Assembly: GCA_963783575.1 (NCBI GenBank)
Contig: CAWAOD010000013.1
Location: 32,001 to 96,000 of the forward strand
Length of the DNA: 64,000 nucleotides
Reading direction: 5' to 3'
From: an uncultured Spirochaetota bacterium
GTDB lineage: Bacteria > Spirochaetota > Brevinematia > Brevinematales > JAOACQ01
Part shown: positions 27,080 to 45,927 of the stretch, one piece after another
Layout of the letters: every line of letters begins with the position of its first letter
How positions within the stretch are numbered: the stretch's first letter is position 1
Notes under the pieces: model-generated
The model's input: the letters and a program-made list of their open reading frames with translations, nothing else
Databases searched by the model: none
Told to the model about the DNA's origin: nothing
Position numbers and translations under genes: made by a program

Positions 27080-27268
27080 TCGGTTTCAATTTATTGTAGC
27101 AAAACTGGTTTGACCGACTAACCGGCTTACCAGCTGAATTCTTGCATAAATTAAACCAGAATTCTAAAATGAAACAATGTCATAAAGAATACAATGTTGT
27201 CATTCTTCGTCCATTCGGCATCCCCGGCTGGAATGATTTTATTAATTGACCGGTTTAAGGAAGAAAAT

Positions 27269-29656
27269 ATGGATCAAAAAAAATTCCAGAATGAGAATAA
27301 ACTTCTGGGCATACTTTCACATCAGCTCAAATCACCGATAAATTCCATTGAAAGCATTCTGAAAGTTATAGTTGACGGATTTACCGGTGAAATCGATGAA
27401 AAAACCCTGTATTTCATTCAGAAGGCAATAAACAAGACCACTGATGCCAGAAATATTATCACAGATATGATAAATTATGAAAAATTATCAACAATGAATG
27501 AAATTATAATGGAAGAAATTGAAATAATAAATTTCATTCATTCGCTTTGCAGAAAATATTCTTTCCAGGCATCGGAAAAAAATATCCTGATCTCAACAGG
27601 CATACCTGAAAATATTAATATATATATTCAGGCTGAACCGGTAAGCCTCGGGATAGCTTTCGGCAACCTTATCGATAACGCCATCAAATATACGCCGAAC
27701 AATGGTAAAATAACAATTTCCATACATATTAACCAGGAAGCAAAAAAATGCCTGGTTATGATCTCCGACTCAGGCTATGGGATTAATCAGGAAGACATAC
27801 CAAAAATATTTGACCCTTTTTTCAGATCGCCCGGGCAAAAGTCGGCTATATCCGGAACCGGTTTGGGTTTGTCTATCGTTAAAAAGGTTATTGAAAAGCA
27901 TAATTTTGAGATAACAGTCGAATCAAGGGAAAATGCAGGGACATCATTTACGGTTACAATCCCCGGAATTAAAATCAAGCAGTATAAAAACCACAAAGCC
28001 AGGGACGGTAAAAAGATTGTCATAATCGGCGGAGTAACGGCAGGGCCTAAAGCTGCGGCAAGATTGAGGCGCCTGGACGAGAGCCTGGACATAACCATTA
28101 TTGAAAAAAGCGAATTTCTATCCTATGCCGGCTGCGGATTACCAGCCTTTATCAGCGGTAAAGTAAACTCGCCGAAGGAACTTATGTCGACATCAGATAA
28201 TACATTGAGGGACGTTAATTTTTTCGAATCGATAAAGAACATAAAGGTATTGAATCAGACAGAAGCGATTGAAATAAACAGGGAAAAGAAAACCGTCGGC
28301 ATTAAAGATTTAGTCAATCAGGTTAAGCATGAAGTCGATTACGATATTCTCATACTGGCTACAGGATCATCATGTTTATATCCTGATATACCGGGAATAA
28401 GGCAGGAAGGGATTTATTCCCTGCATAGCATTGAAGAAGCAAAAAAAATAAAAGAGGAACTGCATCAAAAGCGGGCGATGGATATCATAATAATCGGGGG
28501 CGGATTAATAGGCATTGAAGTTGCAGAATCCATTATGCTTACCGGGGCAAGGGTGACAATACTTGAAAAAAGCGATCAGATACTGAGAATTTTCGATAAG
28601 GAAATATCAAAAAAAATCGAACATGAACTCAACAAAAAGGGCATCAAGGTTTACTTAAGTACATTAATAAAAGAAATCCAAAAAACTGAAAAAAATTTTA
28701 TTATAAAAACTGAAGAAAATGATTTTGTCGCAGATATGATAATCCTTGCCTCGGGGGTCAAGCCGAACACGGCCCTAGCTGAAAAATCAGGTCTGGAGCT
28801 GGGACAGTTCGGCGGCCTGAAGATTAATGAGTATTTTCAGACATCCGATAAGAATATCTACGCAATCGGTGACTGCATAGAAAGCTGCAATGTTATATCC
28901 GGAAAACCTATTCTTTGGCCGCTCGGATCGGTATCGACAAAAATGGGAAGGATCGTTGCGGATAATATTTGCGGTAAAAAGGTTAAATTTAAGGGCCATG
29001 CCGCCACAGCGATGTTTAAGCTGTTTGATTTTAATATCGCAAGGACCGGCTTGAGTCTCCAGGATGCTGTGAACAGCGGCTATGATGTCGAATCCATTGT
29101 TGTCAGCGGGCTCGATTGTTCGCATTACTGCGGCGAGGCTCAGGAAATCACATTAAAGCTGCTTGTTGACAGAAAAACAGAAGCGATACTCGGCGCCCAG
29201 GGATATGGAAGGGGCAATATAGTTGAAAGAATTGAAATGCTTGCTTTTGCCGTGACACAGGGCTTGAAATTAAACGATGTTTACCAGGTTGACCTCGGTT
29301 ATTATCCATATTATAACAACCCGATAGATCTGATTCAAACGGCTTGCATAGCTCTTAAAAATAAAATAGACGGCCTGTACAGAACCATAACCTGTGAAAC
29401 GGTTGAAGCTGGCAGGAACGGCTATAAATTCATTGACGTTAGCCCGGCTTCGGAAAACCACATACTTTATATGTCGAACAGCATCAACATACCGCTTGAA
29501 AATATCCGCGAGGAAAAAATACCATATAAGTGTGAAGATCAGATCGTCCTATTCAGCAGAACATCAGCACGGGCTTATGAGGCTTACCGTTATCTTGTAT
29601 CAAAGGGATTTCAAAATATTTTCGTCCTCGAGGGCGGGTATTTGTTTTATAAATAA
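27269..29656 (+). CDS. Histidine kinase (HisKA-HATPase) fused to CoA-disulfide reductase-like FAD oxidoreductase and rhodanese-like domain
   Basis: SHQLKSP, NLIDNAIKY, DSGYGI, FDPF, GTGLGLSI; then IIGGVTAG, SYAGCGLP, GGGLIGIE, YAIGDC, DLGYYPYY; C-terminal SINIP...LEGG; start ATG 27269 (RBS AAGGAAG). Confidence 0.92.
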   Translation: MDQKKFQNENKLLGILSHQLKSPINSIESILKVIVDGFTGEIDEKTLYFIQKAINKTTDARNIITDMINYEKLSTMNEIIMEEIEIINFIHSLCRKYSFQASEKNILISTGIPENINIYIQAEPVSLGIAFGNLIDNAIKYTPNNGKITISIHINQEAKKCLVMISDSGYGINQEDIPKIFDPFFRSPGQKSAISGTGLGLSIVKKVIEKHNFEITVESRENAGTSFTVTIPGIKIKQYKNHKARDGKKIVIIGGVTAGPKAAARLRRLDESLDITIIEKSEFLSYAGCGLPAFISGKVNSPKELMSTSDNTLRDVNFFESIKNIKVLNQTEAIEINREKKTVGIKDLVNQVKHEVDYDILILATGSSCLYPDIPGIRQEGIYSLHSIEEAKKIKEELHQKRAMDIIIIGGGLIGIEVAESIMLTGARVTILEKSDQILRIFDKEISKKIEHELNKKGIKVYLSTLIKEIQKTEKNFIIKTEENDFVADMIILASGVKPNTALAEKSGLELGQFGGLKINEYFQTSDKNIYAIGDCIESCNVISGKPILWPLGSVSTKMGRIVADNICGKKVKFKGHAATAMFKLFDFNIARTGLSLQDAVNSGYDVESIVVSGLDCSHYCGEAQEITLKLLVDRKTEAILGAQGYGRGNIVERIEMLAFAVTQGLKLNDVYQVDLGYYPYYNNPIDLIQTACIALKNKIDGLYRTITCETVEAGRNGYKFIDVSPASENHILYMSNSINIPLENIREEKIPYKCEDQIVLFSRTSARAYEAYRYLVSKGFQNIFVLEGGYLFYK

Positions 29657-30451: not shown

Positions 30452-30832
30452 CTAATCGATTAAATTCTCAACCCTTTCTATAAATTGCTTGGGCTGAATG
30501 GGTTTGATAACATACTCATCCACTGGAAGCCAGTCCTCATCGCCCGCGGTCGATTTGAAATCTATATTGGTTTCATTATCCACATTCGTGAGCATAAGTA
30601 TTTTTATTTTTTCAAATTTTGCGTTATTTTTCAGTTCCCTAGCCATCTCGAACCCGGCGTTGCTGTTTTCCATCATTACATCCAGTATGACAAGATCGGG
30701 TATAAATTTTTCCAGTACCTGAAAACCTTCTTTCCTGGAACCGGCTTCTTTAATATCATATTTGCCGGAAAATATCACGGTCAATAACTCCCTCTGGTCC
30801 GGATCGTCATCTATGATTAATATTTTTTTCAT
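30452..30832 (-). CDS. Single-domain response regulator (receiver)
   Basis: ILIIDDD, PDLVILDVMM, MLT, YVIKP. Confidence 0.95.
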   Translation of the reverse strand: MKKILIIDDDPDQRELLTVIFSGKYDIKEAGSRKEGFQVLEKFIPDLVILDVMMENSNAGFEMARELKNNAKFEKIKILMLTNVDNETNIDFKSTAGDEDWLPVDEYVIKPIQPKQFIERVENLID

Positions 30833-31323: not shown

Positions 31324-33048
31324 ATGAAAGAAGCAATGACCATATGTTCGTTTTGCGGCTGCGGATGCAGCATGTATATGGCAAGCGAAGACAATTCCAT
31401 CACTAAAATCATTCCGGCATTGTCAAATCCTGTCAACCGCGGAAGCCTCTGCATAAAAGGCTGGCATATAAGCGAAGCCTATATCAATCAAAATAGAATT
31501 ACAAAGCCTCTGATCAAAACTAACGGAGAATTCAAAGAAGCGGGTTATGATGAAGCATTGAATCTGATTGCCGATAAATTCTCTTTTTATAAGAAATCTC
31601 AGAATTCAATCGGGGTAATCGGCTCCGCTAAAACTACAAACGAAGAGAATTATCTATTAAACCGCCTTGCCCGTCAGGCATTGGAAACAAACTCAATCGA
31701 CAGCTCTTTCACTCTGCACTATCACTCTCTTTTGGAAAATATCAACGGATTAAATCTAACCATCGGCATGGAAGATATCGAAAACGCGGATTTTATCATC
31801 GTTATCGGTTCGAACCTTCATACCGAAGCGCCTCAGGTTATAAAAAAAGTTTTGAAGGCTTCCGATAAAGGCGCGAAAATCGCGGTGATAGGTTTTCTTT
31901 CAGTTCCTCTTGCGGAAGTATCCGATTACTCGATCCCGATTAATCCGGCTGAGATATCTCAATTCCTGCAGAACTTTAAGGATATATTAAATTCCCCCGG
32001 GACGGATAAAGTTTCCGATGATATGATAACAGATATTGCATTGTCATATAAGAAATCGAAAAATCCCGTTGTTATAATCGGCGAAGATGTTTTTAAAAGT
32101 ACCCTTTCGAAACCGGGATTTAAAGTTTTATCTGAAATTTTTCAAGGAAGGATATTTCCGCTTTTTACAATAAACAATATTCTCGGCGCTGTATCTTATG
32201 GAATTTCACCTTATGCTGATAATAAATATTTAGCCGGGAAATGGAATGCAGAACTGCCGGCAGACAGGGGATTGAATATTTTCGAAATGCTTGATGCCTC
32301 CAATAACGGCAGTATGAAATGTATGTATATAGTCGGTGAGGATTTGCTCGCTGATGCCGGGGATTATAGCAGAGTAAAAAAGTCTCTTGAAAATCTTGAA
32401 TTCCTGGTCGTGCAGGATTTATTTATGACAGAAACCGCGAAATTGGCGGATGTCATTCTTCCCGCGGCCGGTTCTCTCGAGAAAAAAGGCACTTTTACAA
32501 ATATGGAAGGAAAACGCCAGCATTTTATGCCCGTTATCGACCCTATCGGCGAATCGAAACCGGATTCGGAAATTTTTATGGAATTATCGGGAAGGTTGGG
32601 AATTAAGCTTCCTTATGGCGATGTAAACGAAATAACCGAAGAAATTAAGGATATTGATTTATTTAAAAATAAAATTTTCATAACCGGAAATATATCCATT
32701 CCTGAGGAAAACACCGGTGATAGTTTTCCCCTGTGGATAAAAGCGGACAATACCCGTCTGAAGTATCATTCCGGAAGCCTGCTTAAAAACTCGTATTTCT
32801 TAGAGCGTGAAATGGAGCCTGCTGCCGTTCTGGTACATCCGGACCAGGCAAAGGCAAACCAGCTTAGAAATAACGAAAAAGTAAAAATTACTACAAAATA
32901 CGGGGAAATATTAAGAAATGTCCTGATATCAAACGATATCCCGAAAGGAAGCATCGTTTTAAGAACAAATATCAGCGATTATTCCCATACCATGGTATTA
33001 CCGGCAGGGTTATTATGGACGCCGGGTAGATTGGAGAAATTATCATGA
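31324..33048 (+). CDS. Formate dehydrogenase alpha-like molybdopterin-family protein lacking the Mo/W-ligand Cys/Sec
   Basis: CSFCGCGC...LCIKG 4Fe-4S motif, SAKTTNEENY, VVQDLFMTETA...ADVILPAA...EKKGTFTN; NSIDSSFTLHY where FdhF-type enzymes have NNxDxCARx(C/U)H. Confidence 0.85.
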   Translation: MKEAMTICSFCGCGCSMYMASEDNSITKIIPALSNPVNRGSLCIKGWHISEAYINQNRITKPLIKTNGEFKEAGYDEALNLIADKFSFYKKSQNSIGVIGSAKTTNEENYLLNRLARQALETNSIDSSFTLHYHSLLENINGLNLTIGMEDIENADFIIVIGSNLHTEAPQVIKKVLKASDKGAKIAVIGFLSVPLAEVSDYSIPINPAEISQFLQNFKDILNSPGTDKVSDDMITDIALSYKKSKNPVVIIGEDVFKSTLSKPGFKVLSEIFQGRIFPLFTINNILGAVSYGISPYADNKYLAGKWNAELPADRGLNIFEMLDASNNGSMKCMYIVGEDLLADAGDYSRVKKSLENLEFLVVQDLFMTETAKLADVILPAAGSLEKKGTFTNMEGKRQHFMPVIDPIGESKPDSEIFMELSGRLGIKLPYGDVNEITEEIKDIDLFKNKIFITGNISIPEENTGDSFPLWIKADNTRLKYHSGSLLKNSYFLEREMEPAAVLVHPDQAKANQLRNNEKVKITTKYGEILRNVLISNDIPKGSIVLRTNISDYSHTMVLPAGLLWTPGRLEKLS

Positions 33049-34091
33049 ATAAAATAAAACTTATTGATAAAGGCAAACTTTCCGCCTGGATTGAAGGCAT
33101 CATAAAAAAATACAGGGTTTTCGCTCCTCAGAAAATCGGCGAAAATGAATATATTTTTAAGGACCTGGTTTCACCTGATAAAATCTCGCTTGATTATATC
33201 AACCCGGTTATTTCACCCATAAAAGATCTGCTTTTCCCGATGAATGAAAAATTGATAGATTACAAAAAAAAGGAAAACGGATGGGAAACAAAGACCGAAG
33301 AAATCAAAGAGAAAACCGTGCTTTTCGGAATGCGTTCATGTGATCTGTCGGCTTTAATATTCATGGATAAATTCTTCCTTGAAGGGTTTAAGGATAATTA
33401 TTACGCGGCAAGAAGGGAAAATCTTTTTACTGTAAATGTAAGCTGTCTTAATCCCGCGGAATACTGCTTCTGCGTCTGCGCGGATGCCGGACCATCTAAG
33501 GACGATGGTTTTGATGTTCAGCTAACCGATATCGGCGGTAAATACCTGGTCGAAATAGGTTCCGGAAAGGGCGAGGAACTTGTAAATATTGATTCTTCTT
33601 TATTTACAGAGGCATCCCCCGATGATCTTAAGAAAAAGCATGATTTGATTCTTGAAATAAGGAACAATAAATTCAAACTACCGACCACATATTTTTCCAA
33701 AGCGATCCGGCATGTAACAGCCGATGATATAAGCGAAAAGGAATGGAATAAGCTCGGGGCAAGGTGCATCGCCTGCGGAAGCTGTTCATACATCTGCCCG
33801 ACCTGTACCTGTTTTAATGTTATCGACATTGAGAAAAAACCCGGAGAGGGTTCGAGATACAGGACCTGGGATTCATGCATGTACGGCGGTTTTACCAGGG
33901 AAGTGTCGGGGCATAATCCCCGTCCGACTCAGAAGGAAAGGGTGAAAAGACGCTATTACCATAAGCTTAGCTATTATTACCTGAGGAAAATGGGAACACA
34001 TGGATGCGTGGGCTGCGGCAGGTGCGTTATATCCTGCCTGGGCAGCATTGATATGTTCGATGTCAGTAAAGATATCAGAAGGAACGGATAA
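33045..34091 (+). CDS. 4Fe-4S dicluster protein, AsrA / sulfhydrogenase beta / FlxB-like
   Basis: GMRSCD, CFCVC, CIACGSCSYICPTCTCF, RTWDSC, GCVGCGRCVISC. Confidence 0.9.
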   Translation: MNKIKLIDKGKLSAWIEGIIKKYRVFAPQKIGENEYIFKDLVSPDKISLDYINPVISPIKDLLFPMNEKLIDYKKKENGWETKTEEIKEKTVLFGMRSCDLSALIFMDKFFLEGFKDNYYAARRENLFTVNVSCLNPAEYCFCVCADAGPSKDDGFDVQLTDIGGKYLVEIGSGKGEELVNIDSSLFTEASPDDLKKKHDLILEIRNNKFKLPTTYFSKAIRHVTADDISEKEWNKLGARCIACGSCSYICPTCTCFNVIDIEKKPGEGSRYRTWDSCMYGGFTREVSGHNPRPTQKERVKRRYYHKLSYYYLRKMGTHGCVGCGRCVISCLGSIDMFDVSKDIRRNG

Positions 34092-34919
34092 ATGGAAAAC
34101 ATATATTTATCGCAGGAAGCTGTAATCAGGGATATAAAACAGGAAACTTTCGACACAAAGACTTTTTTCCTTTCGTTCAGGGATAAAAATATTCAGAAAA
34201 ATTTTGAATACAAGCCGGGGCAGTTTATTGAAGCTTCCCTGTATGGATATGGTGAAGCTCCTTTCGGAATGGCCACATCCCCGACACGCAAAGATTATTT
34301 TATAACGACGATACGCTCGGTCGGTAAACTGACACAGGCCATCCATTCACTTAAAATCGGGGATACTATCGGCGTGAGGGGACCGTTTGGGAACAGTTTC
34401 CCATTTGAGGAAGTAAAAGGGAAAAATATTTTATTCATCGGGGGCGGCATCGGCCTTCCGCCTTTAAGGTCTCTCATACATTATATGATGGACAAACGTT
34501 CCGATTATAAAGATATTACGATACTCTACGGAGCAAGAACACCTAAAGACCTTGTTTATAAGGAAGAATTAAAGGAATGGGAAAACAGCAAAGATATTAG
34601 TTTTTATGTTACAGTAGATGCAGCCGATGGCGAATGGAAAGGAAACGTCGGAGTTGTTCCGCTTCTATTGAACAAAATAAAGCTTGATATTCCAAACACT
34701 GTGGCTTTTGTGTGCGGACCTCCTATTATGATAAAATTTGTTATCCAGGATCTTCTGAAATTGAATTTCGCCGAGGAAAATATTATTACAACCCTGGAAA
34801 GATATATGAAATGCGGAGTCGGTAAGTGCGGGCATTGCGCCATCGGATACAAATATGTCTGCATGGATGGGCCGGTTTTTAATTATAAACAGATAAAAAA
34901 CCTGCCGGAAAAGGCATAA
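34092..34919 (+). CDS. FAD/NAD(P)-binding 2Fe-2S subunit, AsrB / sulfhydrogenase gamma / FlxA-like
   Basis: KPGQF, GEAP, RGPFGN, GGGIGLPPLRS, CGPPIM, MKCGVGKCGHC...CMDGPVF. Confidence 0.92.
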   Translation: MENIYLSQEAVIRDIKQETFDTKTFFLSFRDKNIQKNFEYKPGQFIEASLYGYGEAPFGMATSPTRKDYFITTIRSVGKLTQAIHSLKIGDTIGVRGPFGNSFPFEEVKGKNILFIGGGIGLPPLRSLIHYMMDKRSDYKDITILYGARTPKDLVYKEELKEWENSKDISFYVTVDAADGEWKGNVGVVPLLLNKIKLDIPNTVAFVCGPPIMIKFVIQDLLKLNFAEENIITTLERYMKCGVGKCGHCAIGYKYVCMDGPVFNYKQIKNLPEKA

Positions 34920-34944
34920 TGATTATAAAATCAGGGATAAAAAA

Positions 34945-36966
34945 ATGATTGAATATTTAATTTACGCTGTAATCGCCGGGTTTATTCTTACCTGCTTTAC
35001 CGTAAGATTCAGGAAGCTTTGCGGGTATATAGCATTCTTTACCATATTATTAATAAGTATCGGCGTGTTCTATATTGTTTATCAGGTCTTCAGCACATCG
35101 TCGCCTGTAAAGATCGACGAACCTCTTATGATACTTCCGGTTATAGGGGCGCAGCTTGTTTTTAACATCGATAAAATGGGGGCTTTATTCCTATCGCTGA
35201 TCGCCGTAATCTCGCTGCTTGCTTCGCTTTATTCAATTGATTATATGGACAGCTACAAAGAAGAAAGCCTTTTAAGGTTCTATCCTTTTTTGATACTTTT
35301 TGTTCTCAGCATGATAGGGGTGGTTATTGTTTCCGACCTGTTTTTCTTTTTCGTATTCTGGGAGTTTATGACATTATCGTCATATTTTCTTGTTATTTTT
35401 GAAAAAAAAGACCCGGTAGTACTAAAAGCCGGGTTTAAATACTTTTTGATGACCCACATTGGAACAGCTTTAATGTTTATTGCAGCTTTCGTTCTTCAGT
35501 CCTATGCCGGTACATTCAGATTTGACGGCATTGAACAGGCCATTGGTTCAATGGCTGTAAAAGCCACATTCGGCCTGCATATTGTCCTGGCTTTGTTCTT
35601 TATCGGGTTTGCGACAAAATCGGGCGTTTACCCATTCGGAACATGGCTGCCGGATGCCCATCCCGCGGCTCCTTCCGGAATCTCCGCGATGCTGTCGGGA
35701 GTTATGATAAAAATGGGGATTTTCGGGATACTCCGCATTTTCTTGTATATACTCCCTGTTTCTGACTTTTCAGTGCTCTGGGGGATTATCATCGCTGTCT
35801 TTGGGACATTGTCAATTTTGATCGGCACATTTAACGCCCTTGTCCAGAAGGATTCTAAAAGACTGCTGGCTTTCCACAGCATCGGCCAGATCGGGTATGT
35901 TCTTCTGGCTGTCGGAATTGGTATAAGCTTTATGAAGGATAACCCGGCCATCGCAACGATAGCATTAATCGCAGGTTTATTCCATATGATAAACCATGCC
36001 TTCTTCAAGAGCCTTTTGTTTTTAAACGCCGGATCGATATTATTCAAAACCGGGATAAAAAACCTGAACAATCTTGGCGGATTATGGAACATCATTCCAC
36101 TTACGGCTGTGACAGCGCTTGTTGCCTCTCTTTCCATTTCAGGAATACCGCCGTTTAACGGATTTGTCAGCAAATGGCTTATCTATCAGGTATCCATCCT
36201 CGGGGGAATCAAGGTTCCTTTATTCGTATCATGCGGAGTCGTGGCGATTTTTTTATCGGCTATAACTATGGCTTCATTTATTAAGTTTTTCTCCACTTCA
36301 TTTCTCGGGGATTTACCATGTGACATTAAAGATCATATAACCGCAAAAAGAATGCCCGCGGGAATGAATATTTCACAAATAATCCTTGCGCTTATCTGCC
36401 TGGGGTTGGGTCTTGCGCCGTTGTTCCCGGTAAAACTTATTTATGACTCACTAGCCGGGTCAAAACTTGCCGATACTTTACCGCAATTCGGTTCAATATT
36501 CAACGGCAGCGCCGGCGGGATCGGGATCCTTATAGACGGTAAAGAAACCGGGGTATGGAAGCCTCTGGTAATAGTACTAATATTCCTGGGGCTGGTTCTT
36601 TTATCTTACTTAATTTCAAAACTTGGCGGCTCAAAAAAAAGGGTCGTACCGGTCTGGCTATGCGGAGAGGAATACGACAGGGAGCAGGTTCGGTACAGGG
36701 CTCATAGTTTTTATTTATCGCTGCAGCATCTTATTGAGGGGTGGTTTTTCCCCAAGATTTTGATACCGGGTAAAGAAAAACCGGAGCGAGTTTATAATTC
36801 AATGAATTTCGATAATATCGCGTTTTATCCTTTAGCCAGGTGGATAGTAAACCTCGCAGATAAAATAAAAAAGAGCCACAGCGGAATACCGCAAATCTAT
36901 ATGCTGTGGCAGGTTCTGGGTGTAATTATTGCGGTAACCCTTATAATCCTCGCTGGAGGTAAATAG
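34945..36966 (+). CDS. hyfB: Group 4 hydrogenase antiporter-like membrane subunit (HyfB/HycC)
   Basis: FWEFMTLSSY, WLPDAHPAAPS, KRLLAFHSI, NHAFFKSLLFL, PPFNGFVSKW. Confidence 0.85.
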   Translation: MIEYLIYAVIAGFILTCFTVRFRKLCGYIAFFTILLISIGVFYIVYQVFSTSSPVKIDEPLMILPVIGAQLVFNIDKMGALFLSLIAVISLLASLYSIDYMDSYKEESLLRFYPFLILFVLSMIGVVIVSDLFFFFVFWEFMTLSSYFLVIFEKKDPVVLKAGFKYFLMTHIGTALMFIAAFVLQSYAGTFRFDGIEQAIGSMAVKATFGLHIVLALFFIGFATKSGVYPFGTWLPDAHPAAPSGISAMLSGVMIKMGIFGILRIFLYILPVSDFSVLWGIIIAVFGTLSILIGTFNALVQKDSKRLLAFHSIGQIGYVLLAVGIGISFMKDNPAIATIALIAGLFHMINHAFFKSLLFLNAGSILFKTGIKNLNNLGGLWNIIPLTAVTALVASLSISGIPPFNGFVSKWLIYQVSILGGIKVPLFVSCGVVAIFLSAITMASFIKFFSTSFLGDLPCDIKDHITAKRMPAGMNISQIILALICLGLGLAPLFPVKLIYDSLAGSKLADTLPQFGSIFNGSAGGIGILIDGKETGVWKPLVIVLIFLGLVLLSYLISKLGGSKKRVVPVWLCGEEYDREQVRYRAHSFYLSLQHLIEGWFFPKILIPGKEKPERVYNSMNFDNIAFYPLARWIVNLADKIKKSHSGIPQIYMLWQVLGVIIAVTLIILAGGK

Positions 36967-36967
36967 T

Positions 36968-38659
36968 ATGAATGGAAATGAATTGATATCAAAATTAAAA
37001 AGCAAATTTAATGACAGCATAGTCAATGCGGTTGAAAAAACGCCTTCAAGGGTTTTTATTACTGTTCCAAAGAATAAAATCAAAGAAATTACAGGATATA
37101 TTTCAAAGGATATGAAAGCCCGGTTTCAGGTCAGCGTAGGGACCGACAGCAGGAATAAAAACGGGAATTTTCAGATTACGCATATTTTTTCACTGGATAA
37201 AGAAAAGCTTTACATTATTGTTCATGCCCTGGTTCATCCCGATGACCCGAATATAGACTCAATAGCGAATGATATTCCGGCGGCAAACTGGACCGAAAGG
37301 GAATTCAGGGATATGATCGGCGTCAACCCGGTTGGGCATCCTGACCCCAGAAGGCTTGTACTGGCTGATGATTGGCCGGATGATGTTTATCCTTTAAGGA
37401 AGGACTTCCCATACGACTGTAAAGTACCATCGGTGTCGCCCGGTTCTCCGGGACCGAGAATCGTAATGAAAGCGCCGCCCGAAGGGGCTTCGGTAATACC
37501 GATAGGCCCGTTTTACCCGGTGCTTGAGGAGCCTTCGCAGTGGAGAATTTTTGTCGAGGGTGAATCAATTGTCGGCTGCGATTACAGGGGATTTTACGTC
37601 CACAGGGGAATTGAAAAACTTGGAGACAGCGTACTGACATACAACCAGATTCCGTTTATCGCTGAAAGAATCTGCGGGATTTGCGGTTTCGTTCATTCCA
37701 GCTGCTACTGCCAGGCTGTTGAGAACGCGGCGGGAATTGAAATTCCGGAAAGATCGAAGTTTATAAGAAGCATTCTTCTTGAACTGGAAAGAATCCACAG
37801 CCATCTGTTGTGGCTCGGGATCGCCGGGCATATCATCGGCTTCGATACCGTTCTTATGCAAAGCTGGAGGATAAGGGAGCCTGTGATGTGGCTGACCGAA
37901 AGAATCACCGGGCATAGAAAAACTTATGGCATGAACCTCATCGGAGGTGTAAGGAGAGACATAACAAAAGAAATGTGCCAGGATATAACAAATGTTATAA
38001 ATAAAGTTGAAAAAGAATGGACTGCAGTGATTAACGCGATCGGAGGCGATACCCCGCTGTTTATGAGGCTCAGGAATGTCGGTGTGCTCAGCCATGAAAA
38101 CGCGCTTAAAACCTCTGTTCTGGGGCCGACGGCGAGAGGTTCCGGAGTGGATATAGACGCAAGGACGGATCACCCGTTCGCGGCTTATGAATATATCCCG
38201 GTCAACAGGATTGTTCATAATGAAGGCGATATAATGTCAAGGACTATGGTCAGGCTTGAAGAAACACTCGAATCAATAAGGATCATTAAAGAATGCATGA
38301 AGCTGATGCCGGAAGGCCCGATCATGGCGAAAGTTCCGGACACGATACCGGACGGACTTGAAGGCGTAAGCGTTGTCGAACCGCCCAGGGGCGAAGTGAT
38401 TCACTATATAATGACCGGGGGTGACAACCGTCCTTACAGGTGGCGTGTCAGGGCCCCTACATATTTTAACCTTCAGGCTGTTCCTATAATGATAGAAAAT
38501 GTTACAATCGCCGATGTCCCGATCACCCTTGGAAGCATTGACCCATGCTTTTCCTGCACCGAAAGGATGGAGGTCGTGGACGTTAAGAAAGGCGACATTA
38601 AAGTATATTCGCAGGATGACTTACTGGCGTTGTCAAGGAAGAAGTATGGTGATAAATGA
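36968..38659 (+). CDS. hycE: Group 4 [NiFe]-hydrogenase large subunit (NuoC+D-like, HycE/HyfG)
   Basis: GHPDPRRLVL, HRGIEK, L1 ERICGICGFVH, L2 DPCFSCTER followed by a C-terminal extension. Confidence 0.93.
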   Translation: MNGNELISKLKSKFNDSIVNAVEKTPSRVFITVPKNKIKEITGYISKDMKARFQVSVGTDSRNKNGNFQITHIFSLDKEKLYIIVHALVHPDDPNIDSIANDIPAANWTEREFRDMIGVNPVGHPDPRRLVLADDWPDDVYPLRKDFPYDCKVPSVSPGSPGPRIVMKAPPEGASVIPIGPFYPVLEEPSQWRIFVEGESIVGCDYRGFYVHRGIEKLGDSVLTYNQIPFIAERICGICGFVHSSCYCQAVENAAGIEIPERSKFIRSILLELERIHSHLLWLGIAGHIIGFDTVLMQSWRIREPVMWLTERITGHRKTYGMNLIGGVRRDITKEMCQDITNVINKVEKEWTAVINAIGGDTPLFMRLRNVGVLSHENALKTSVLGPTARGSGVDIDARTDHPFAAYEYIPVNRIVHNEGDIMSRTMVRLEETLESIRIIKECMKLMPEGPIMAKVPDTIPDGLEGVSVVEPPRGEVIHYIMTGGDNRPYRWRVRAPTYFNLQAVPIMIENVTIADVPITLGSIDPCFSCTERMEVVDVKKGDIKVYSQDDLLALSRKKYGDK

Positions 38660-38670
38660 CAATTATGGGT

Positions 38671-38741
38671 CGAGCATCCTGCCTGGCCTGCCTACAACGG
38701 GATATCCGGCAGGTAGGCGGCAGACAGGTCATGCTTGCTCG
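38671..38741. repeat. GC-rich nested palindrome (REP-like) in the hycE-hyfC spacer
   Basis: GAGCAT-CCTGCCTG-GCCTGCCT...AGGTAGGC-GG-CAGACAGG-TC-ATGCTT. Confidence 0.55.
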
Positions 38742-38753
38742 GGAGGAAAGTAA

Positions 38754-39653
38754 ATGGTTTGGTTAGCAATTATAAATGTTTTGCTTGTAATACTGCTTTC
38801 GCCGCTTTATGAAGGCATTATAAGAAAAGTGAAGGCTTTTGTCCATTCGAGAAAAGGCCCGCCGGTTTACCAACCTTACATTGACCTGTTAAAGCTTTTA
38901 GGTAAAGAGGATCTGCGGGTATCAGGCAATATCCTGATCGGCCTGGCTCCTGTGGTGTGTTTCGCAAGCGTGTTGATGGTTGCAATGCTGACTCCAATCG
39001 GAACAATAGTTTCTCCGCTGGGATTCGGCGGGGATGCCATTGTTATGATATATTTTATAGCTTTATCAGCTTTCGCTATTATGATCGGCGCGGCGGCAAC
39101 TGAAAACCCGTACGCCTTTGTCGGCTTAAACAGAAAGATGATGCTGTATCTTGTACTTGAAATTATAGTTGTAATAGCGATTCTCGCGGGAGTCATCAAA
39201 AGCGGTTCTTTCCAGATCTCGGATATTGTCAGGAGAGTTTTAAAAAACGGCATGTCTGTCTCGACCGTGCTTGCCGCGGCGGCGTTTTTCCTTGTAATCC
39301 AGGCTCAGCTCGCGAAACTGCCTTTTGATGTATCCGAAGCCGAGCAGGAATTGATGGAAGGTCCTTTTATAGAGGCTTCCGGCCCAAGGCTCGCCCTTTT
39401 TAAATGGAGCTTTTACGCGAAACAGATAATATATTCATCGCTGTTTCTGGAAATGTTCATCCCATGGCCGAAGACATACATTATACCGTTGGATATACTG
39501 ATAAACCTGGCTAAAGTATTGGCCGTGATGCTTCTGATAGGGGTCATTGACGTTGTAAATCCGAGGCTTCGTATAGACCAGGCTATAAAGTATTATACAG
39601 GAGTATCGATAGTAGCTTTGATCGGGCTTTCATTCGCGGTGATAGGAGCGTAA
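38754..39653 (+). CDS. hyfC: NuoH-like membrane subunit (HyfC/HycD)
   Basis: RKVKA...RKGPPVYQPYIDLLKLLGK, LPFDVSEAEQELMEGPFIE. Confidence 0.9.
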   Translation: MVWLAIINVLLVILLSPLYEGIIRKVKAFVHSRKGPPVYQPYIDLLKLLGKEDLRVSGNILIGLAPVVCFASVLMVAMLTPIGTIVSPLGFGGDAIVMIYFIALSAFAIMIGAAATENPYAFVGLNRKMMLYLVLEIIVVIAILAGVIKSGSFQISDIVRRVLKNGMSVSTVLAAAAFFLVIQAQLAKLPFDVSEAEQELMEGPFIEASGPRLALFKWSFYAKQIIYSSLFLEMFIPWPKTYIIPLDILINLAKVLAVMLLIGVIDVVNPRLRIDQAIKYYTGVSIVALIGLSFAVIGA

Positions 39654-39809
39654 ATTAGCGGCTAGATATTAGTCGCTATTCGTTAGCTATCTGATATAGT
39701 CAGTTTCTGTTTTTATTTATGTATAGTAGCGGAAAGCCAAATTGATTTGTAATCCTTCGTTCGGATAAGGATTATATAATGGTCAAGCGGCACGCTTGAG
39801 GAAAAGTTT

Positions 39810-40250
39810 ATGTTTTTAAGCAAGATTAAAGAAGCGATAATATGCTTCAAAGCCGGAAGGGTCACAATGCCCTACCCATTGGGCGCGGAAGGAAACCCTC
39901 CGAAGGAATGGTTCAGGGGAAGGGTCCATCTTGATCCAACTAAATGTATCGGCTGCGGCGGCTGTGCAAATGTTTGCCCACCGGGTTTGATAAAAATAAT
40001 CGATGTCGACGGCAAAAGGTTTATTGAAAGGGATCTTTTCCGCTGTATTTACTGCGGCAGGTGCGTTGAGGAATGCCCGGAAAAGGCCATCACAATGTCT
40101 GAGGATTATGAACTCGCAACCGATCATAAAGAAGATCTCTTAATCCGGCAGGAGATAGATATGGCGACCTGCCAGAGGTGCGGAAGATGTTTTGACCGGA
40201 ATTTAAAGAATCCGCTGGATAAAATGATGATAAAAGGCTTTAGAAGCTGA
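39810..40250 (+). CDS. hycF: NuoI-like 2x[4Fe-4S] subunit (HycF/HyfH)
   Basis: TMPYP, FRG, CIGCGGCANVCP, CIYCGRCVEECP, extra CQRCG. Confidence 0.88.
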   Translation: MFLSKIKEAIICFKAGRVTMPYPLGAEGNPPKEWFRGRVHLDPTKCIGCGGCANVCPPGLIKIIDVDGKRFIERDLFRCIYCGRCVEECPEKAITMSEDYELATDHKEDLLIRQEIDMATCQRCGRCFDRNLKNPLDKMMIKGFRS

Positions 40251-40265
40251 TCCCGGAGGTTAAAG

Positions 40266-40931
40266 ATGGAACTTTCATATATAGTATCGCTGTTCTGCCT
40301 GTCTATGTTCATAACAACAATAGCGGTAATAGAAATAAGGAATTTAAAATACGCGGTTTACGCATATTGCCTGCAGGCAATTATTATGGCTGTTCTGTAT
40401 TTCTATCTTGCTTCTCATATAAATCCAAGATTTTTCGTCTGGTTTATTGAGGTTGTGGTTGTAAAAATTGTACTTATACCGATGTTTTTTTTGATATATA
40501 TAAGAAGAACTACCCAAATAGCTTTCAGACCTTTTATTGGCTATATCCCCTCGGTATTTCTGATGGCTTTTATAATAATAATCATGTTCTATATGATATA
40601 TACTAACATCAATTTTATAGCCCCAAGTGCCGAAGCCGTTCAGGACCCCGGAAGAACGCTTCTTTCCGTATCATTGACTGTTTTCACATTGGGATTGTAC
40701 GGGATTTTGACAAGACGCGACGCTATAAAAATGGTCTTAAGCCTCTGCGTGGTGGATAACGGCGTGCATTTATTCCTGGTAAGCACCGCCCTGTCAATGC
40801 CTGAAATAGCCGTCATCGGTATAACAACGGACGCGGTTATAGCCGTTTTACTGCTGCTTTACCTGGTAAGAGGAATATTCAATGAATTCGGGTCTGCCGA
40901 TACCAATGAACTGAAGAATCTAAGGTGGTAA
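40266..40931 (+). CDS. hyfE: HyfE-like membrane subunit
   Basis: YCLQA, KIVLIP, TRRDAIK...DNGVHL; ~7 TM segments. Confidence 0.8.
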   Translation: MELSYIVSLFCLSMFITTIAVIEIRNLKYAVYAYCLQAIIMAVLYFYLASHINPRFFVWFIEVVVVKIVLIPMFFLIYIRRTTQIAFRPFIGYIPSVFLMAFIIIIMFYMIYTNINFIAPSAEAVQDPGRTLLSVSLTVFTLGLYGILTRRDAIKMVLSLCVVDNGVHLFLVSTALSMPEIAVIGITTDAVIAVLLLLYLVRGIFNEFGSADTNELKNLRW

Positions 40932-40933
40932 TT

Positions 40934-42475
40934 ATGCCTGAAGTTAATACTTTCTATTGTATTATATTATTTATAGTGCCTGCCGCAACGGCATTACTCA
41001 TTCTTATTCTTGGAAGATTCCGGATATTCAGGGAATGGCTGGCTTTAGCGGGTATGACTGCCACTTTTATAATTAGCGTATATATATTCCTTAATTCTCA
41101 AAGAACCATACAAAGCTATTTCAATAATAATCTCAGGATAGATGCTTTCAGCGGATTGATTATTGCTCTGATCAGTTTGATCGGACTGGCCGTTTTAGTT
41201 TATTCAGTAAAATATTTAAAAACCGAAAAAGAAAAAGGTATATTCAAGGAAAAAAAGCTGAAATCATTCTACTGGCAGTTTATGCTTCTCATAAGCGTTA
41301 TGCTGCTGCTTGCGACATCAAACAATATCGTTCTTTTATGGGTGGTGATAGAAGCGACTACCCTTGCCGCGACGATTCTCGTTTCATTCTACTGGAACAA
41401 AAACTCCCTTGAGGCGGGTTTTAAATTTGTTATGATTCTGACTGTCGGAATGTCAATAGCGCTTATCGGCTGTATTTTATTATATTCGGGAGTGGCCCAT
41501 AATGTTAAAGCCGGCGAAGACCCCCTGCAGATTACAACCATAATATCAGTCGTAAAATCTGGCATAATCCCGAAAAGCATATTGAGCCTGTCAGCGGCTT
41601 TTTTACTGGTTGGTTTCGGCACAAAAGCAGGGATCGCACCTTTTCATACCTGGATGCCCGATGCTTATGCCGAATCGCCGGTACCTGTCAGTTCCATTTT
41701 ATCCGGTGTTGTTGTTAATATGAGTATTTATGCCCTTATCAGGATTTTTTCGATATTTTATTCGGCTGTACCGGTTTTAAATATTTTTGTGATTGTTCTT
41801 GGGCTGTTCTCAATGCTTCTCGGTGTTTTAATGATGTTTGTCCAGGATGATATCAAAAGATTTCTGGCGTATTCTTCGGTCAGCCAGATCGGTTATATCA
41901 TATTAGGATTCGGTCTCGCAGGGTCACAGGCCCCGGCTATTGGAACAATGGTCAATAATGGGGCTTATCTCGGGATGTACGGCGCTATCTTTCATATTAT
42001 CAACCATGCCCTAATAAAGACGCTTTTATTTTTGAGCGCGGGCGCGGTAATTTACGCAACAGGAATACGCAGGATGAGCGAACTCGGAGGCCTTGGGAAA
42101 AAAATGCCAATAACCGCCGTCTGCTTTTTTATAGCAGGGTTATCCATTTCGGGGATTCCATTTTTGAACGGCTTTGCAAGTAAATTTATAATCTTCATGG
42201 CGGGAGCAAAAATTGATGGAATGATATGGACGACAGTCATAGCAATAATCTGCAGTATATTGACGCTTGCGAATATTATTATAATTCTTCATAAGATATT
42301 TATGGGAAATGTTTCAGAGAATTTAAATAATTATGAAGTAAAAGAAGTTCCTGCGTCACTATGGACAGTAATGGTTTTTTTATGTATGTTATGCATTTTA
42401 TTGGGTGTTTATCCTCAAATTATGAATCCGTTTCTGGATAAAGCCGCAAGTGTTATTTTATCGGTAATATATTGA
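40934..42475 (+). CDS. hyfF: HyfF-like antiporter membrane subunit
   Basis: WVVIEATTL, SLEAGFKF, GFGTKAGIAPFHTWMPDAY, KRFLAYSS; ORF open from 40925. Confidence 0.85.
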   Translation: MPEVNTFYCIILFIVPAATALLILILGRFRIFREWLALAGMTATFIISVYIFLNSQRTIQSYFNNNLRIDAFSGLIIALISLIGLAVLVYSVKYLKTEKEKGIFKEKKLKSFYWQFMLLISVMLLLATSNNIVLLWVVIEATTLAATILVSFYWNKNSLEAGFKFVMILTVGMSIALIGCILLYSGVAHNVKAGEDPLQITTIISVVKSGIIPKSILSLSAAFLLVGFGTKAGIAPFHTWMPDAYAESPVPVSSILSGVVVNMSIYALIRIFSIFYSAVPVLNIFVIVLGLFSMLLGVLMMFVQDDIKRFLAYSSVSQIGYIILGFGLAGSQAPAIGTMVNNGAYLGMYGAIFHIINHALIKTLLFLSAGAVIYATGIRRMSELGGLGKKMPITAVCFFIAGLSISGIPFLNGFASKFIIFMAGAKIDGMIWTTVIAIICSILTLANIIIILHKIFMGNVSENLNNYEVKEVPASLWTVMVFLCMLCILLGVYPQIMNPFLDKAASVILSVIY

Positions 42476-42487
42476 GAGAGGAAATTG

Positions 42488-42973
42488 ATGTTTAAAAAAC
42501 TTTCGCATAAAGCATTCCCGAAATCGCTCTGGGTTTACCATGTCAACACCGGGGCATGCAACGGATGCGACATTGAAGTTATCGATACGCTGACGCCTTA
42601 CTATGACGCCGAAAGATTCGGAATCAAACTGGTGAGTTCTCCCAGGCATGCAGATGTCCTGCTTATTTCAGGCCCGATTACAAGGCAGATTTTACCGGCA
42701 TTTAAAAGGCTTTACGACGCTGTTCCATCCCCCAAGCTTGTTTTTGCCATAGGCGCTTGCGCTGCCGGGGGCGGGATCTGGAAGAATTCTTACAATGTTG
42801 TAGGCGGCGTGGATAATATAATAAAAGTAGATTATTACATCCCCGGATGTCCGCCCAGGCCGGAAGCAATTCTGCATGGAGTTGCCGTAGCACTCGGCCT
42901 TGTCCCAAAATCGGTAAAATCAGAAGAATATAAAGAAAAATCCCTTGATGAAATGTTCCCTCCGGAAGAATAA
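42488..42973 (+). CDS. hycG: Group 4 hydrogenase small subunit (NuoB-like, HycG/HyfI)
   Basis: GACNGCDIE, SPRHAD, GACA, IPGCPPRP. Confidence 0.92.
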   Translation: MFKKLSHKAFPKSLWVYHVNTGACNGCDIEVIDTLTPYYDAERFGIKLVSSPRHADVLLISGPITRQILPAFKRLYDAVPSPKLVFAIGACAAGGGIWKNSYNVVGGVDNIIKVDYYIPGCPPRPEAILHGVAVALGLVPKSVKSEEYKEKSLDEMFPPEE

Positions 42974-43111: not shown

Positions 43112-43318
43112 ATGACAAATGAATTTACAGCCTGCATCTGGAAAGAAGGAAATTGGTATATAGCTCAATGTATGGAAGTTGATATCGCGAGCCAGGGAGA
43201 ATCTTCCAAGGAAGCCGTTCTTAATTTAAAAGAAGCATTGGAACTATATTTTGAAGAACCTCATCCGACCTTATCCCCAATGATTAAAAAATTAAAAATT
43301 AATATCCATGCCGCTTAA
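43112..43318 (+). CDS. hicB: HicB-like antitoxin (short form, no DNA-binding domain)
   Basis: YIAQC..VDIASQGES..EAVLNLKEALELY. Confidence 0.85.
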   Translation: MTNEFTACIWKEGNWYIAQCMEVDIASQGESSKEAVLNLKEALELYFEEPHPTLSPMIKKLKINIHAA

Positions 43319-43529
43319 TCCGCAGCCTTATCGTGAAGTAAAACGGAAGCTTGAAACAGCCGGCTTTTATGAATATTCCCAAAAAGGAAGTCATGTAAAA
43401 TTAGTGAAAATAACCAGTGAAGGAACAAGAACCGCAATAATTCCAAAACATTCAGAAATTAGTGTCGGTACATTAAGAAGTATTCTGCGTCAGGCTGGTT
43501 TGACTATTGAAGAATTTGAATCTTTTTGA
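43308..43529 (+). CDS. hicA: HicA-family mRNA interferase toxin
   Basis: LETAGF...QKGSHVKL...IPKH.EI..GTLRSILRQAG. Confidence 0.9.
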   Translation: MPLNPQPYREVKRKLETAGFYEYSQKGSHVKLVKITSEGTRTAIIPKHSEISVGTLRSILRQAGLTIEEFESF

Positions 43530-43553: not shown

Positions 43554-44612
43554 TTGAATATCAGGAGTCAGAATCTGGATAGAACTGAAATCATCGATTT
43601 ATATAAAAACGGAAAATTCCCGGAATTAATCAGTCTTGCAAATAAGACATACCTGGAAAATTATGGAAATAAAGTATGGATCAGGGGTTTGATTGAATTT
43701 TCCAATTTTTGTAATATGAACTGCACTTATTGTGGTATCCGCATGGACAACCGCAAAATTAACCGTTACAGGCTCGAAGAAACGGAAATAATAAATATCG
43801 TACGGCAGGGTATGGAAGCCGGATTTAAAACATTCGTCCTTCAGAGCGGAGAGGACAATTTTTATACTATTAAAGTGCTATGCCGCCTTATTGAAAAAAT
43901 AAGGGATATTGCGTCCGGATCGATAGCAATTACACTAAGCTGCGGGTTGAAGACAAAATCTCAGTTTAAAGAACTGAAAAAAGCGGGCTGCAACCGTTAT
44001 CTGATGAGGTTTGAAACATCAGATGAAGCGCTTTTTTCGGGATTGAAAAACGGATTGTCGCTGAAAGACCGGTTAAAAGGACTTTATTATCTTAAAGAAC
44101 TGGGATTTGAGACAGGTTCCGGCTATATGGTAGGATTGCCAGGGGAAACCGGGGAAACCAGGATCAATAACGCTTTATTATGCGCCGATCTTGAGCTGGA
44201 TATGATCGGCATAGGGCCGTTCATTCCGCATCCGTATACGCCCCTGTATGATTCAGCAGTTCCTTGTATTGATGAGACTGTAAGGTCAACAGCGCTTTTA
44301 AGACTGCTTCTGCCAAAATCAAATATACCGGCGACAACTGCCGCCGGCAGCATCCATCCATCAGGAAGGGAAAAGATGCTTGAAGCGGGCGCGAACGTGC
44401 TTATGCCGAATATAACACCTGCGGAACACAAAAAGGACTATACCCTCTATCCGGGGAAAATTTGTATTGAAGAATCGGGGCTTCAATGCCTGGAATGCCT
44501 GGAAATAAGGGTTAGGAGCATCAATAAAACTATAGATATGGGGCGCGGTGATTCGAAAAACAAGGGGACTGATATTGGAAGAAAAGATTTATTATGGAGA
44601 GGAAACCGCTAA
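43554..44612 (+). CDS. hydE: [FeFe]-hydrogenase maturase, radical SAM
   Basis: RGLIEFSNFCNMNCTYCG, TFVLQSGED, GIGPFIPHP.TP, PATTA, GANVLMPN, YTLYPGK. Confidence 0.92.
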   Translation: MNIRSQNLDRTEIIDLYKNGKFPELISLANKTYLENYGNKVWIRGLIEFSNFCNMNCTYCGIRMDNRKINRYRLEETEIINIVRQGMEAGFKTFVLQSGEDNFYTIKVLCRLIEKIRDIASGSIAITLSCGLKTKSQFKELKKAGCNRYLMRFETSDEALFSGLKNGLSLKDRLKGLYYLKELGFETGSGYMVGLPGETGETRINNALLCADLELDMIGIGPFIPHPYTPLYDSAVPCIDETVRSTALLRLLLPKSNIPATTAAGSIHPSGREKMLEAGANVLMPNITPAEHKKDYTLYPGKICIEESGLQCLECLEIRVRSINKTIDMGRGDSKNKGTDIGRKDLLWRGNR

Positions 44613-45924
44613 AGCGGTTCAAAATTTTGGGAGCGGTAATCTGCCGCCGGAACTTGTAATTGCTTACGCTTTAGTTAAAAAAGCCGTTCTAATAGCGGTT
44701 CAGGAATCAGAAAAAAAATACCCCGGCACAGTGTTTGAATGCCTGATTCTGGCAGTTGATGAAATTTGCGAGGGCAGGCATATGGAGCAATTTATCATTC
44801 CTCTCAAGCAGGGTGGTGCGGGTACAAGCATCAATATGAATATGAACGAGGTCATCGCAAACCTGGCGGGAGAAATTCACTTTTCTAAATACGGAAATAA
44901 AATCAGCCTCGACCCTATCGACGACATTAACCGCTACCAATCAACAAACGACACATTTCCGACGGCCGTAACTATTGTTGTTTATAACCGTCTGACAAGG
45001 CTTGAGAAATCCGTAATTGAGCTTCAGGAAACCCTGATAAAGAAGGAATCCGAATATTCTTTAATATTAATTACTGGAAGGACGGAAATGCAGTCTGCCC
45101 TGCCAATCACGCTTGGCCAGGTTTTTCCTCGTGGGCCGGGATGATCGAAAGGGATCGATGGAGGCTCAGTAAATTGAAGGATCGCGTGAGAACAATCGCT
45201 CTGGGCGGTACTGCCATAGGAACCTGCTTCAACGCCCCTCAAAAAACCGTTTTTTTATCCGAAAAAATCCTCCGGCAGATTACGGGTTTGCCTCTTTGCA
45301 GAAGCCAGAACCTTACAGACGAGGTTGCAGATCATGATAAGCTTTCGGAACTTGCAGGCGGGATAAAGCTCTGCGCTGAAAATATTTTTAAAATAACCGG
45401 GGATCTTCTGCTTTATTCTTCATCATTCATCGGCGAAATAAATCATCCTGATCTTCAGAAAGCTTCTACAATTATGCCTGCTAAGGTCAACCCGGTTATT
45501 CTTGAGTTTGTCAGGGGTCTGTCTGTCGAAGTACAGCATGAAATGCATGAAAATATCGGAATTTTGCAAAAACGGCCAGCTCCAGTTAAATCCTTATCTC
45601 CCGTTCATACTCGAGGCTTTTATAAATGCTTTTGATGATATGGAAAAAGCCATAAATTCTCTAATAGAAAAGTTTTTTAATAAAATGACAGTCAATGAAA
45701 AACAGGCCGGCCGGAACCTGGCACAGTCTCACGCTCTTCTTAACGCGTTATTGCCTGTCCTGGGATATCATCAAATAGAAAAGATATTTAAGACTGTTGA
45801 CGATAAAAATCCCAAAAGCATCAATGAATTAAAATTGATCATCGCGGAAATAACAGGACTGGACTTTAAAATACTTGATGAATACCTCGACCCTGTCCGT
45901 CTGACAACTTATAGGAAGGAATAA
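44575..45924 (+). pseudogene. aspA: Aspartate ammonia-lyase with two compensating single-base frameshifts
   Basis: QGGAGTSINMNMNEVIAN, QSTNDTFPTA, GRTE.Q.A.PITLGQ, LGGTAIGT, STIMPAKVNP, GQLQLN; missing T in 45122-45126 and extra A in 45541-45543. Confidence 0.85.
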
Positions 45925-45927
45925 AAA

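Follow-up and report, generated by a model that had tools for sequence, protein, structure and literature searches.

Which donor supplies electrons to a membrane-bound [NiFe] hydrogenase whose operon lacks the usual HycB-type subunit and opens instead with genes for a pseudo-formate dehydrogenase (pseudo-FDH) and an AsrA/AsrB-like oxidoreductase? The question is raised by a ten-gene operon of an uncultured Spirochaetota bacterium, located on a stretch of 64,000 nucleotides (C13:32001-96000, that is, on contig C13) that we refer to in full as the window. The source genome is a 4.9-Mb assembly in 18 contigs that is 89.85% complete, and all absences reported for it below apply to this assembly; gene families of the window's open reading frames (ORFs) were assigned by Pfam and NCBIfam. 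HydDB, in the accessible parts of its description, gives formate, CO and ferredoxin as donors of group 4 enzymes and has no NAD-linked class (PMC5037454). As we argue below, the operon represents a real, conserved and uncharacterised variant that combines a hydrogenase apparently of the formate hydrogenlyase (FHL) lineage with a probable scaffold derived from a molybdenum-less FdhF, an AsrAB input module and no HycB. We give roughly an even chance to the reading, based on sequence comparison, that this complex is an "NADH hydrogenlyase", oxidising NADH with release of H2 as long as H2 stays low.

The hydrogenase core groups with the FHL lineage

Small, NuoI-, NuoH- and antiporter-like subunits are all encoded together with the large subunit, as in group 4 [NiFe] hydrogenases. 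Both nickel-binding CxxC motifs that the initial annotation had noticed are in place (RICGIC at residues 234-239, DPCFSC at 525-530), and all four NiFe cysteine ligands are retained, unlike in the NiFe-less Ehr and Mbx relatives; the 30-residue extension after R533 is of the cleavable C-terminal type. The large subunit is 40% identical to the fused large subunit of E. coli, and a quick tree built from 41 such proteins places it in a 28-row clade (Shimodaira-Hasegawa-like approximate likelihood ratio test, SH-aLRT, 100) that also holds E. coli HycE/HyfG, archaeal relatives and operons of the same phylum, though not as sister to HycE/HyfG. The two antiporter-like subunits correspond to two PF00361 proteins. 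HyfB retains Glu140, Lys225, Lys256 and Lys410, HyfF matches the pattern of its E. coli namesake, and none of the membrane subunits departs from the E. coli Hyf patterns.

Two related complexes are encoded elsewhere in the genome. One (C18:144333-153632) is Ehr-like, its large subunit having lost the NiFe cysteines; the other (C14:382366-392261) is again of group 4, keeps the CxxC motifs intact, and includes hycI and three antiporter genes. This second complex has no redox input module and is conserved in five relatives that also lack HypD.

The first gene encodes an FdhF-like protein without a molybdenum site

Alignment to E. coli FdhF bears out the earlier designation of the first product as a pseudo-FDH: Sec140, His141 and Arg333 are replaced by His, Tyr and Phe, and both the Cys/Sec-His ligand pair and the RGQ motif are absent. 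One [4Fe-4S] motif is retained (Cys8/11/15/42 plus Lys44 of FdhF). Among other internal deletions the protein lacks FdhF segments 243-272 and 510-542, and its 574 residues compare with about 680 in the nearest genuine FDHs. A hidden selenocysteine was ruled out, since the ORF contains no internal stop. The predicted structure (predicted local distance difference test, pLDDT, 81.6; predicted template-modelling score, pTM, 0.86) finds its best fold matches in FdhF (template-modelling score, TM, 0.82) and mycobacterial NuoG (TM 0.81). The protein belongs to a small family of about 550 residues; of the best 120 matches listed, at least ten other clusters share 41-52% identity with it. In an alignment of 33 rows, the molybdenum ligand is missing from 22/22 FdhF-like proteins that precede asrA-asrB and present in 10/10 genuine FDHs; the corresponding tree, built by a quick method and marked by long branches, does not separate a single loss of the site from repeated losses.

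The initial annotation had named a true FDH elsewhere in the genome as a possible donor. We find no catalytic FDH: the pseudo-FDH is the only PF00384 protein of the source genome, and neither MoeA nor MoaC was found there, both being detected in 11 of 14 control genomes. Of the 17 other genomes that carry the operon, 4 have kept it in the absence of MoeA. The pseudo-FDH is likely a scaffold. Longer FdhF/NuoG-like proteins of 850-875 residues that lack the ligand cysteine (L048, L051, L080, L082 and L116) sit in complex I-like or group 4-like clusters.

AsrA and AsrB form a candidate NAD-linked input module

The best solved structural matches of AsrA (E 2e-53) and AsrB (E 2e-63) are the beta and gamma subunits of Pyrococcus furiosus sulfhydrogenase I (SHI; PDB 9nez). 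In AsrB the [2Fe-2S] motif, the CGPP motif and the glycine-rich motif are all in place. Where FNR-type enzymes that use NAD differ from those that use NADP, 8/8 aligned AsrB homologues read TVD, where the NADH-using PyrK has ATDD and the NADPH-using SHI gamma has SVTR. The aspartate at this site, Asp177, points to NAD(H) as the carrier, and it supports the NAD linkage of what had been annotated as an NAD(P)H module.

Alternatively, reduced ferredoxin, or CO by way of the genome's CooS and CooF, might deliver electrons at AsrA or at the cluster of the pseudo-FDH, with AsrB as a side branch. Such donors would make ion export thermodynamically comfortable; the Hun complex, with its HunABC proteins, is read as ferredoxin-fed in the accessible text of 10.1101/536078, and a CooF-like gene lies in a cluster resembling that for carbon monoxide dehydrogenase/acetyl-CoA synthase (CODH/ACS) on contig C4. 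However, this CooF gene has an FAD/NAD oxidoreductase neighbour of its own, and the NAD-binding domain is complete in every AsrB homologue aligned, so we consider a ferredoxin or CO donor unlikely. The CODH/ACS-like cluster with CooF, identified by eye, occupies C4:277174-287332, in a genome that has neither a catalytic FDH nor molybdenum cofactor genes.

A candidate iron-sulphur cluster may stand in for HycB

In E. coli FHL, HycB joins FdhF to HycF, and HycF Cys117/120/155/158 hold one metal close to FdhF (PMC9474812, cited here and below for its accessible passages). The absence of a HyfA/HycB gene from the cluster is confirmed, and E. coli HycB and HyfA queries match only two distant loci of the source genome, one beside glutamate-synthase-like genes and one in the CODH/ACS-like cluster (both contexts read by eye from translations). 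The HycF of the window has lost the distal CxxC of the FHL metal site and gained a CxxCxxC motif (Cys121/124/127). Among 33 aligned HycF-like rows, 21 show CxxCxxC without the distal CxxC (the window, L016, L046, L047, L177, L178 and 15 loci of the phylum), eight have the quartet and four have no tail. AsrA in turn carries an extra cysteine, Cys145, which is invariant in 19/19 aligned rows and absent from homologues that have no group 4 partner (L081, L228, L229, L230 and SHI beta). The two features occur together in 19 of the 21 stretches that hold both genes; the remaining two (L025 and L026) have neither, and L025 has a CooF-like gene. This co-occurrence suggests a candidate bridging cluster, bound by three cysteines of HycF and one of AsrA, that would replace HycB. 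HycF Cys12 was rejected as an alternative fourth ligand, being conserved in four close homologues but not in 15 spirochaete copies and also lying far from the metal site in FHL (PMC9474812).

If the ten products assemble as these features predict, electrons would pass from NADH to the FAD and [2Fe-2S] cluster of AsrB, on to the clusters of AsrA, across the putative AsrA-HycF bridge, and through HycF and HycG to the NiFe site. The pseudo-FDH would serve as a scaffold whose own cluster is either off the path or a relay, like NuoG in complex I.

The three-gene module accompanies the hydrogenase across lineages

In the synteny check proposed with the initial annotation, the three-gene module travels with the hydrogenase in several lineages. 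Metagenome contigs L046 and L047 have the same gene order plus one more antiporter gene, the third; L045 reaches no further than genes one to three, all of which it has; L016 has the order pseudo-FDH, asrA, asrB, hycF, hycE, hycG, hyfC, hyfB, and L015 has asrAB ahead of a hydrogenase. Within the phylum, an AsrA profile finds matches in 123 of 401 genomes, 55 of them at E <= 1e-92, and all 29 top loci have an FdhF-like neighbour. We fetched 20 regions, 17 of them from the 55 high scorers (in six other families; 18 of the 55 were not examined) and three lower-scoring. All 17 high-scoring regions show the conserved order of pseudo-FDH, asrA, asrB, hycI, hyfB and hycE with a single antiporter, followed by hyfC, hycF and hycG where the contig reaches (15/17); the three lower-scoring regions are genuine FDH-AsrAB or Hdr-linked loci with no group 4 genes. 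The membrane arm among homologues accordingly ranges from one to three antiporters. At four loci scanned, genes for acetate kinase, acetyl-CoA hydrolase or acyl-CoA ligase lie downstream. In a phylum search around genome G042, 1 of 121 genomes had the close large subunit.

Within the source genome's family, 0/11 members have a close match to the operon's first gene, and the G+C content of the operon is 0.42 against 0.38 for the whole window; together these suggest that the operon was gained horizontally.

Proposed maturation of the NiFe centre without HypD, HypE and HypF

Neither the source genome nor the 35 genomes searched from its order yielded HypD, HypE or HypF; they are present in 6, 5 and 6, respectively, of the 6 genomes of a neighbouring family. 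All 17 of the other operon genomes have HypD, and a maturation protease gene within the operon. One HypF-like protein of the source genome (C9:460331-461944; L004, 537 residues) was rejected as HypF: it covers only model positions 381-739 and scores below the cut-off, consists only of the C-terminal, Kae1-like domain, and occurs in families f1-f5, including genomes without hydrogenases.

The source genome does encode hypA, hypB and two hycI. At the start of contig C12 (C12:282-4054; L130, L131), hypA, hypB and a gene for a 435-residue fusion of HypC to a HydE-like radical S-adenosylmethionine (SAM) enzyme face the genome's sole hydG. HypC occurs in this genome only in that fusion, whose predicted structure matches T. 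maritima HydE at 1.5 A; an ordinary HydE is also encoded (window 43554-44612). Within the order, the fusion is present in 13 of the 15 genomes with a NiFe large subunit (the other two being 57% and 73% complete) and in 0 of the 20 without one, and in six genomes it lies directly behind the large subunit and hycI. Among 401 genomes of the phylum, which include kin and so are not independent, 15 have the fusion and 116 have HypD, but no genome has both. We propose that the NiFe centre may be built here by HypA, HypB, the HypC-HydE fusion, HydG and HycI instead of HypDEF. The accessible parts of PMC12727194 and PMC9431212 do not mention a HypC-radical SAM fusion, and a literature search, with most subscription journals outside its reach, found no study of a HypC-HydE fusion.

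The absence of the canonical machinery for the Fe(CN)2CO group might alternatively mean that the complex is an Ehr-like relic or no hydrogenase at all. Such a reading is favoured by the lack of HypDEF here and in the 35 genomes of the order, and by the absence of close matches to the operon's first gene in all 11 family members. Against it stand four intact cysteine ligands, the presence of hypA, hypB and two hycI, and a fusion that tracks the NiFe large subunit and adjoins it and hycI in several genomes. We therefore regard a relic as very unlikely.

Direction and coupling of the reaction

By textbook potentials, which underlie the energetic figures given here, H2 formation from NADH costs +18 kJ/mol at 1 bar. 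At -280 mV the calculated values are +14, +3 and -3 kJ/mol at 1000, 10 and 1 Pa H2, which places NADH/H2 near equilibrium at 1-100 Pa, and one ion could be exported at 120-180 mV only if H2 fell under about 0.03-0.003 Pa. Complex I and the characterised group 4 enzymes export ions as electrons move toward the quinone or NiFe site. This normal polarity would leave the complex two roles, that of an H2 valve working near equilibrium or that of an H2 scavenger powered by the gradient.

The initial annotation had proposed an H2:NAD(P)+ oxidoreductase that either conserves energy from H2 oxidation or spends ion-motive force to evolve H2 from NADH. The oxidoreductase part gains support from the absence of a catalytic FDH, the module that travels with the hydrogenase and the NAD-type aspartate. 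The energetic part fares less well: the two options amount to a single coupling whose polarity is opposite to that of characterised group 4 enzymes, and NADH and H2 are near equilibrium at 1-100 Pa H2. Such inverted coupling, in which NADH would yield H2 at the expense of ion influx or NAD+ would oxidise H2 with ion export, could serve the cell at 10-1000 Pa H2, where the +3 to +14 kJ/mol required corresponds to about one ion. Also in its favour, the size of the arm varies among homologues, and membrane arms in the superfamily can be rotated by 180 degrees (PMC9474812). However, we know of no complex I-family enzyme of inverted polarity, a conserved core mechanism has been argued for (PMC9474812), and the membrane subunits show nothing beyond the E. 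coli Hyf patterns. On balance, inverted coupling appears rather improbable.

The same complex could also keep the usual polarity and run in reverse, with ion influx driving H2 oxidation and NAD+ reduction so that H2 is scavenged below the NADH/H2 equilibrium. This would require no novel coupling mechanism, is in keeping with the pump residues retained in both antiporter subunits, and is energetically feasible, as one ion (12-17 kJ/mol) bridges the gap to about 0.01 Pa H2. Above a few Pa of H2, however, the gradient would merely be wasted; acetate-forming neighbours suggest fermentation, and the FHL-lineage enzyme is catalytically biased toward H2 production (PMC9474812). We consider scavenging unlikely. 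Because of this lineage bias and the acetate-forming genes that flank several copies, we weakly favour the near-equilibrium NADH-to-H2 valve, in which ion export would be slight or confined to very low H2.

Several observations weigh against the reading as an NADH hydrogenlyase. The reaction is uphill above about 3 Pa H2 at -280 mV by the same potentials, and the conservation of pump residues speaks against a valve that is simply uncoupled. A bifurcating [FeFe] hydrogenase, Rnf and, as judged by eye, NfnAB-like genes are already present in the genome. MoeA is present in 13 of the 17 other operon genomes. The paired cysteines co-occur in rows that represent about three lineages, so they do not count as independent cases. 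With hypD, hypE and hypF missing from the source genome, hydrogenase activity would depend on the unproven HypC-HydE route. Finally, no Rex-like operator was found in the window, nor upstream of homologous operons (0/20) in a scan that allowed up to 3 mismatches to the consensus and had no positive control, and hence no regulatory link to NADH.

Organisation of the locus

The ten ORFs of the operon match our ORF calls in order, strand and coordinates (Table 1). Their description as tightly coupled holds at seven of the nine junctions (-7 to 25 bp) and fails at two (94 and 156 bp), the successive gaps being -4, 0, 25, 1, 94, 156, 15, -7 and 9 bp.

Table 1. Features of the operon, in window coordinates.
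Feature	Position	Strand	Basis
Pseudo-FDH, FdhF fold, 574 aa	31324..33048	+	domain calls, alignment, predicted structure
AsrA/HydB-like multi-Fe-S protein, 348 aa, extra Cys145	33045..34091	+	
AsrB/HydG-like FAD/NAD(P)/[2Fe-2S] protein, 275 aa, Asp177	34092..34919	+	
HyfB-like antiporter subunit, 673 aa	34945..36966	+	
Group 4 [NiFe] large subunit, fused NuoC-NuoD type, 563 aa	36968..38659	+	
Intergenic palindromic repeat, about 70 bp	38660..38753	.	
HyfC/HycD (NuoH-like) membrane anchor, 299 aa	38754..39653	+	
HycF-like 2x[4Fe-4S] subunit, 146 aa, shortened	39810..40250	+	
HyfE-like membrane subunit, 221 aa	40266..40931	+	
HyfF-like antiporter subunit, 516 aa	40925..42475	+	
HycG-like (NuoB-like) small subunit, 162 aa, proximal-cluster cysteines retained	42485..42973	+	

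The palindromic repeat in the 94-bp gap has 33 more matches across the genome and is probably incidental to the operon. The gap at 39654-39803 is also strongly folding (z -4). Promoter and terminator scans performed no better than chance level.

Upstream of the operon lie a histidine kinase fused to a CoA-disulfide-reductase/rhodanese-like flavoprotein (27194-29656) and a lone, divergent response regulator (30452-30832); many homologous operons are likewise flanked by two-component genes. Downstream, a HicA-type toxin-antitoxin pair (43112-43529) separates the operon from hydE, which is followed by an aspartate-ammonia-lyase-like gene and hydF (43554-47145 in all). The lyase-like gene is split over three overlapping ORFs by frameshifts or assembly errors.

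Implications and comparison with known systems

If the proposed reading is correct, fermenters and syntrophs would have a direct outlet for NADH in the form of a membrane-bound NADH:H2 enzyme, and living genomes would show a formate dehydrogenase turning into an adaptor devoid of its cofactor, as in complex I. The paired cysteines offer a cheap and sharp mutational test, the polarity of coupling across the complex I family becomes addressable, and the same genome provides a test bed for HypDEF-independent NiFe maturation.

Operons that join AsrAB to a group 4 hydrogenase are already in print (2019, 2021), and a Mbh-Mrp-oxidoreductase type of unknown function has been described (10.1101/765248, accessible text); a literature search, again with most subscription journals outside its reach, found no biochemical study of such an operon. 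The "enigmatic" group 4 hydrogenase of Saganbacteria RX5A shares the group 4 core, two antiporters and an asrA-/asrB-like oxidoreductase module, and has an unclassifiable molybdopterin-family protein with one [4Fe-4S] domain that resembles the pseudo-FDH (PMC6349859). Compared by its description only, RX5A has a CooF-like subunit and a separate NuoC, where the window has no CooF/HycB and a fused NuoC-D; the available passages of PMC6349859 report no loss of the molybdenum ligand and name no donor.

In Hun, as described in the accessible text of 10.1101/536078, the AsrA/AsrB-like HunAB lead a group 4 operon, as here, and some copies include a 4Fe-4S molybdopterin-domain protein. That complex has 16 subunits, a full Mrp module, the Fe-S subunit HunC and a group 4g large subunit with CYCC, whereas the operon here has ten genes, a Hyf-type arm, DPCFSC, a large subunit that groups with the FHL lineage and no Mrp small subunits. 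P. furiosus SHI is a soluble, NADP-linked group 3b enzyme; the related pair in the window precedes a membrane group 4 enzyme and has an NAD-type aspartate and an extra cysteine.

Complex I likewise sets a molybdenum-less FdhF fold beside a flavin input module on a core of the same family. In the window, an FNR-type AsrB stands in for NuoF and a NiFe site for quinone, and the pseudo-FDH has none of the N-terminal clusters of NuoG. Taken to its limit, the parallel would make the operon a second, independent invention of the complex I type: an ion-coupled NADH:H2 oxidoreductase with FdhF demoted to a NuoG-like scaffold and AsrAB wired to HycF by an inter-subunit Fe-S cluster, in which the ion gradient forces electrons from NADH into H2 formation despite back-pressure and the NiFe centre is made without HypDEF by [FeFe]-type radical-SAM chemistry (HydG plus HypC-HydE). 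We consider this full combination quite unlikely.

A further comparison is with FHL-1 and FHL-2 of E. coli (HydDB group 4a; PDB 7z0s/7z0t), which share the fused large subunit, homologues of HycF, HycG and HyfB/C/E/F, and a partner of the FdhF fold. In the window this partner has no molybdenum site, HycB/HyfA and HyfD are missing, the metal quartet of HycF has become CxxCxxC, and AsrAB has been added. By its defining features the complex is thus not an FHL, a Hun or an Ehr; its sequence suggests that it would work like FHL with the donor swapped.

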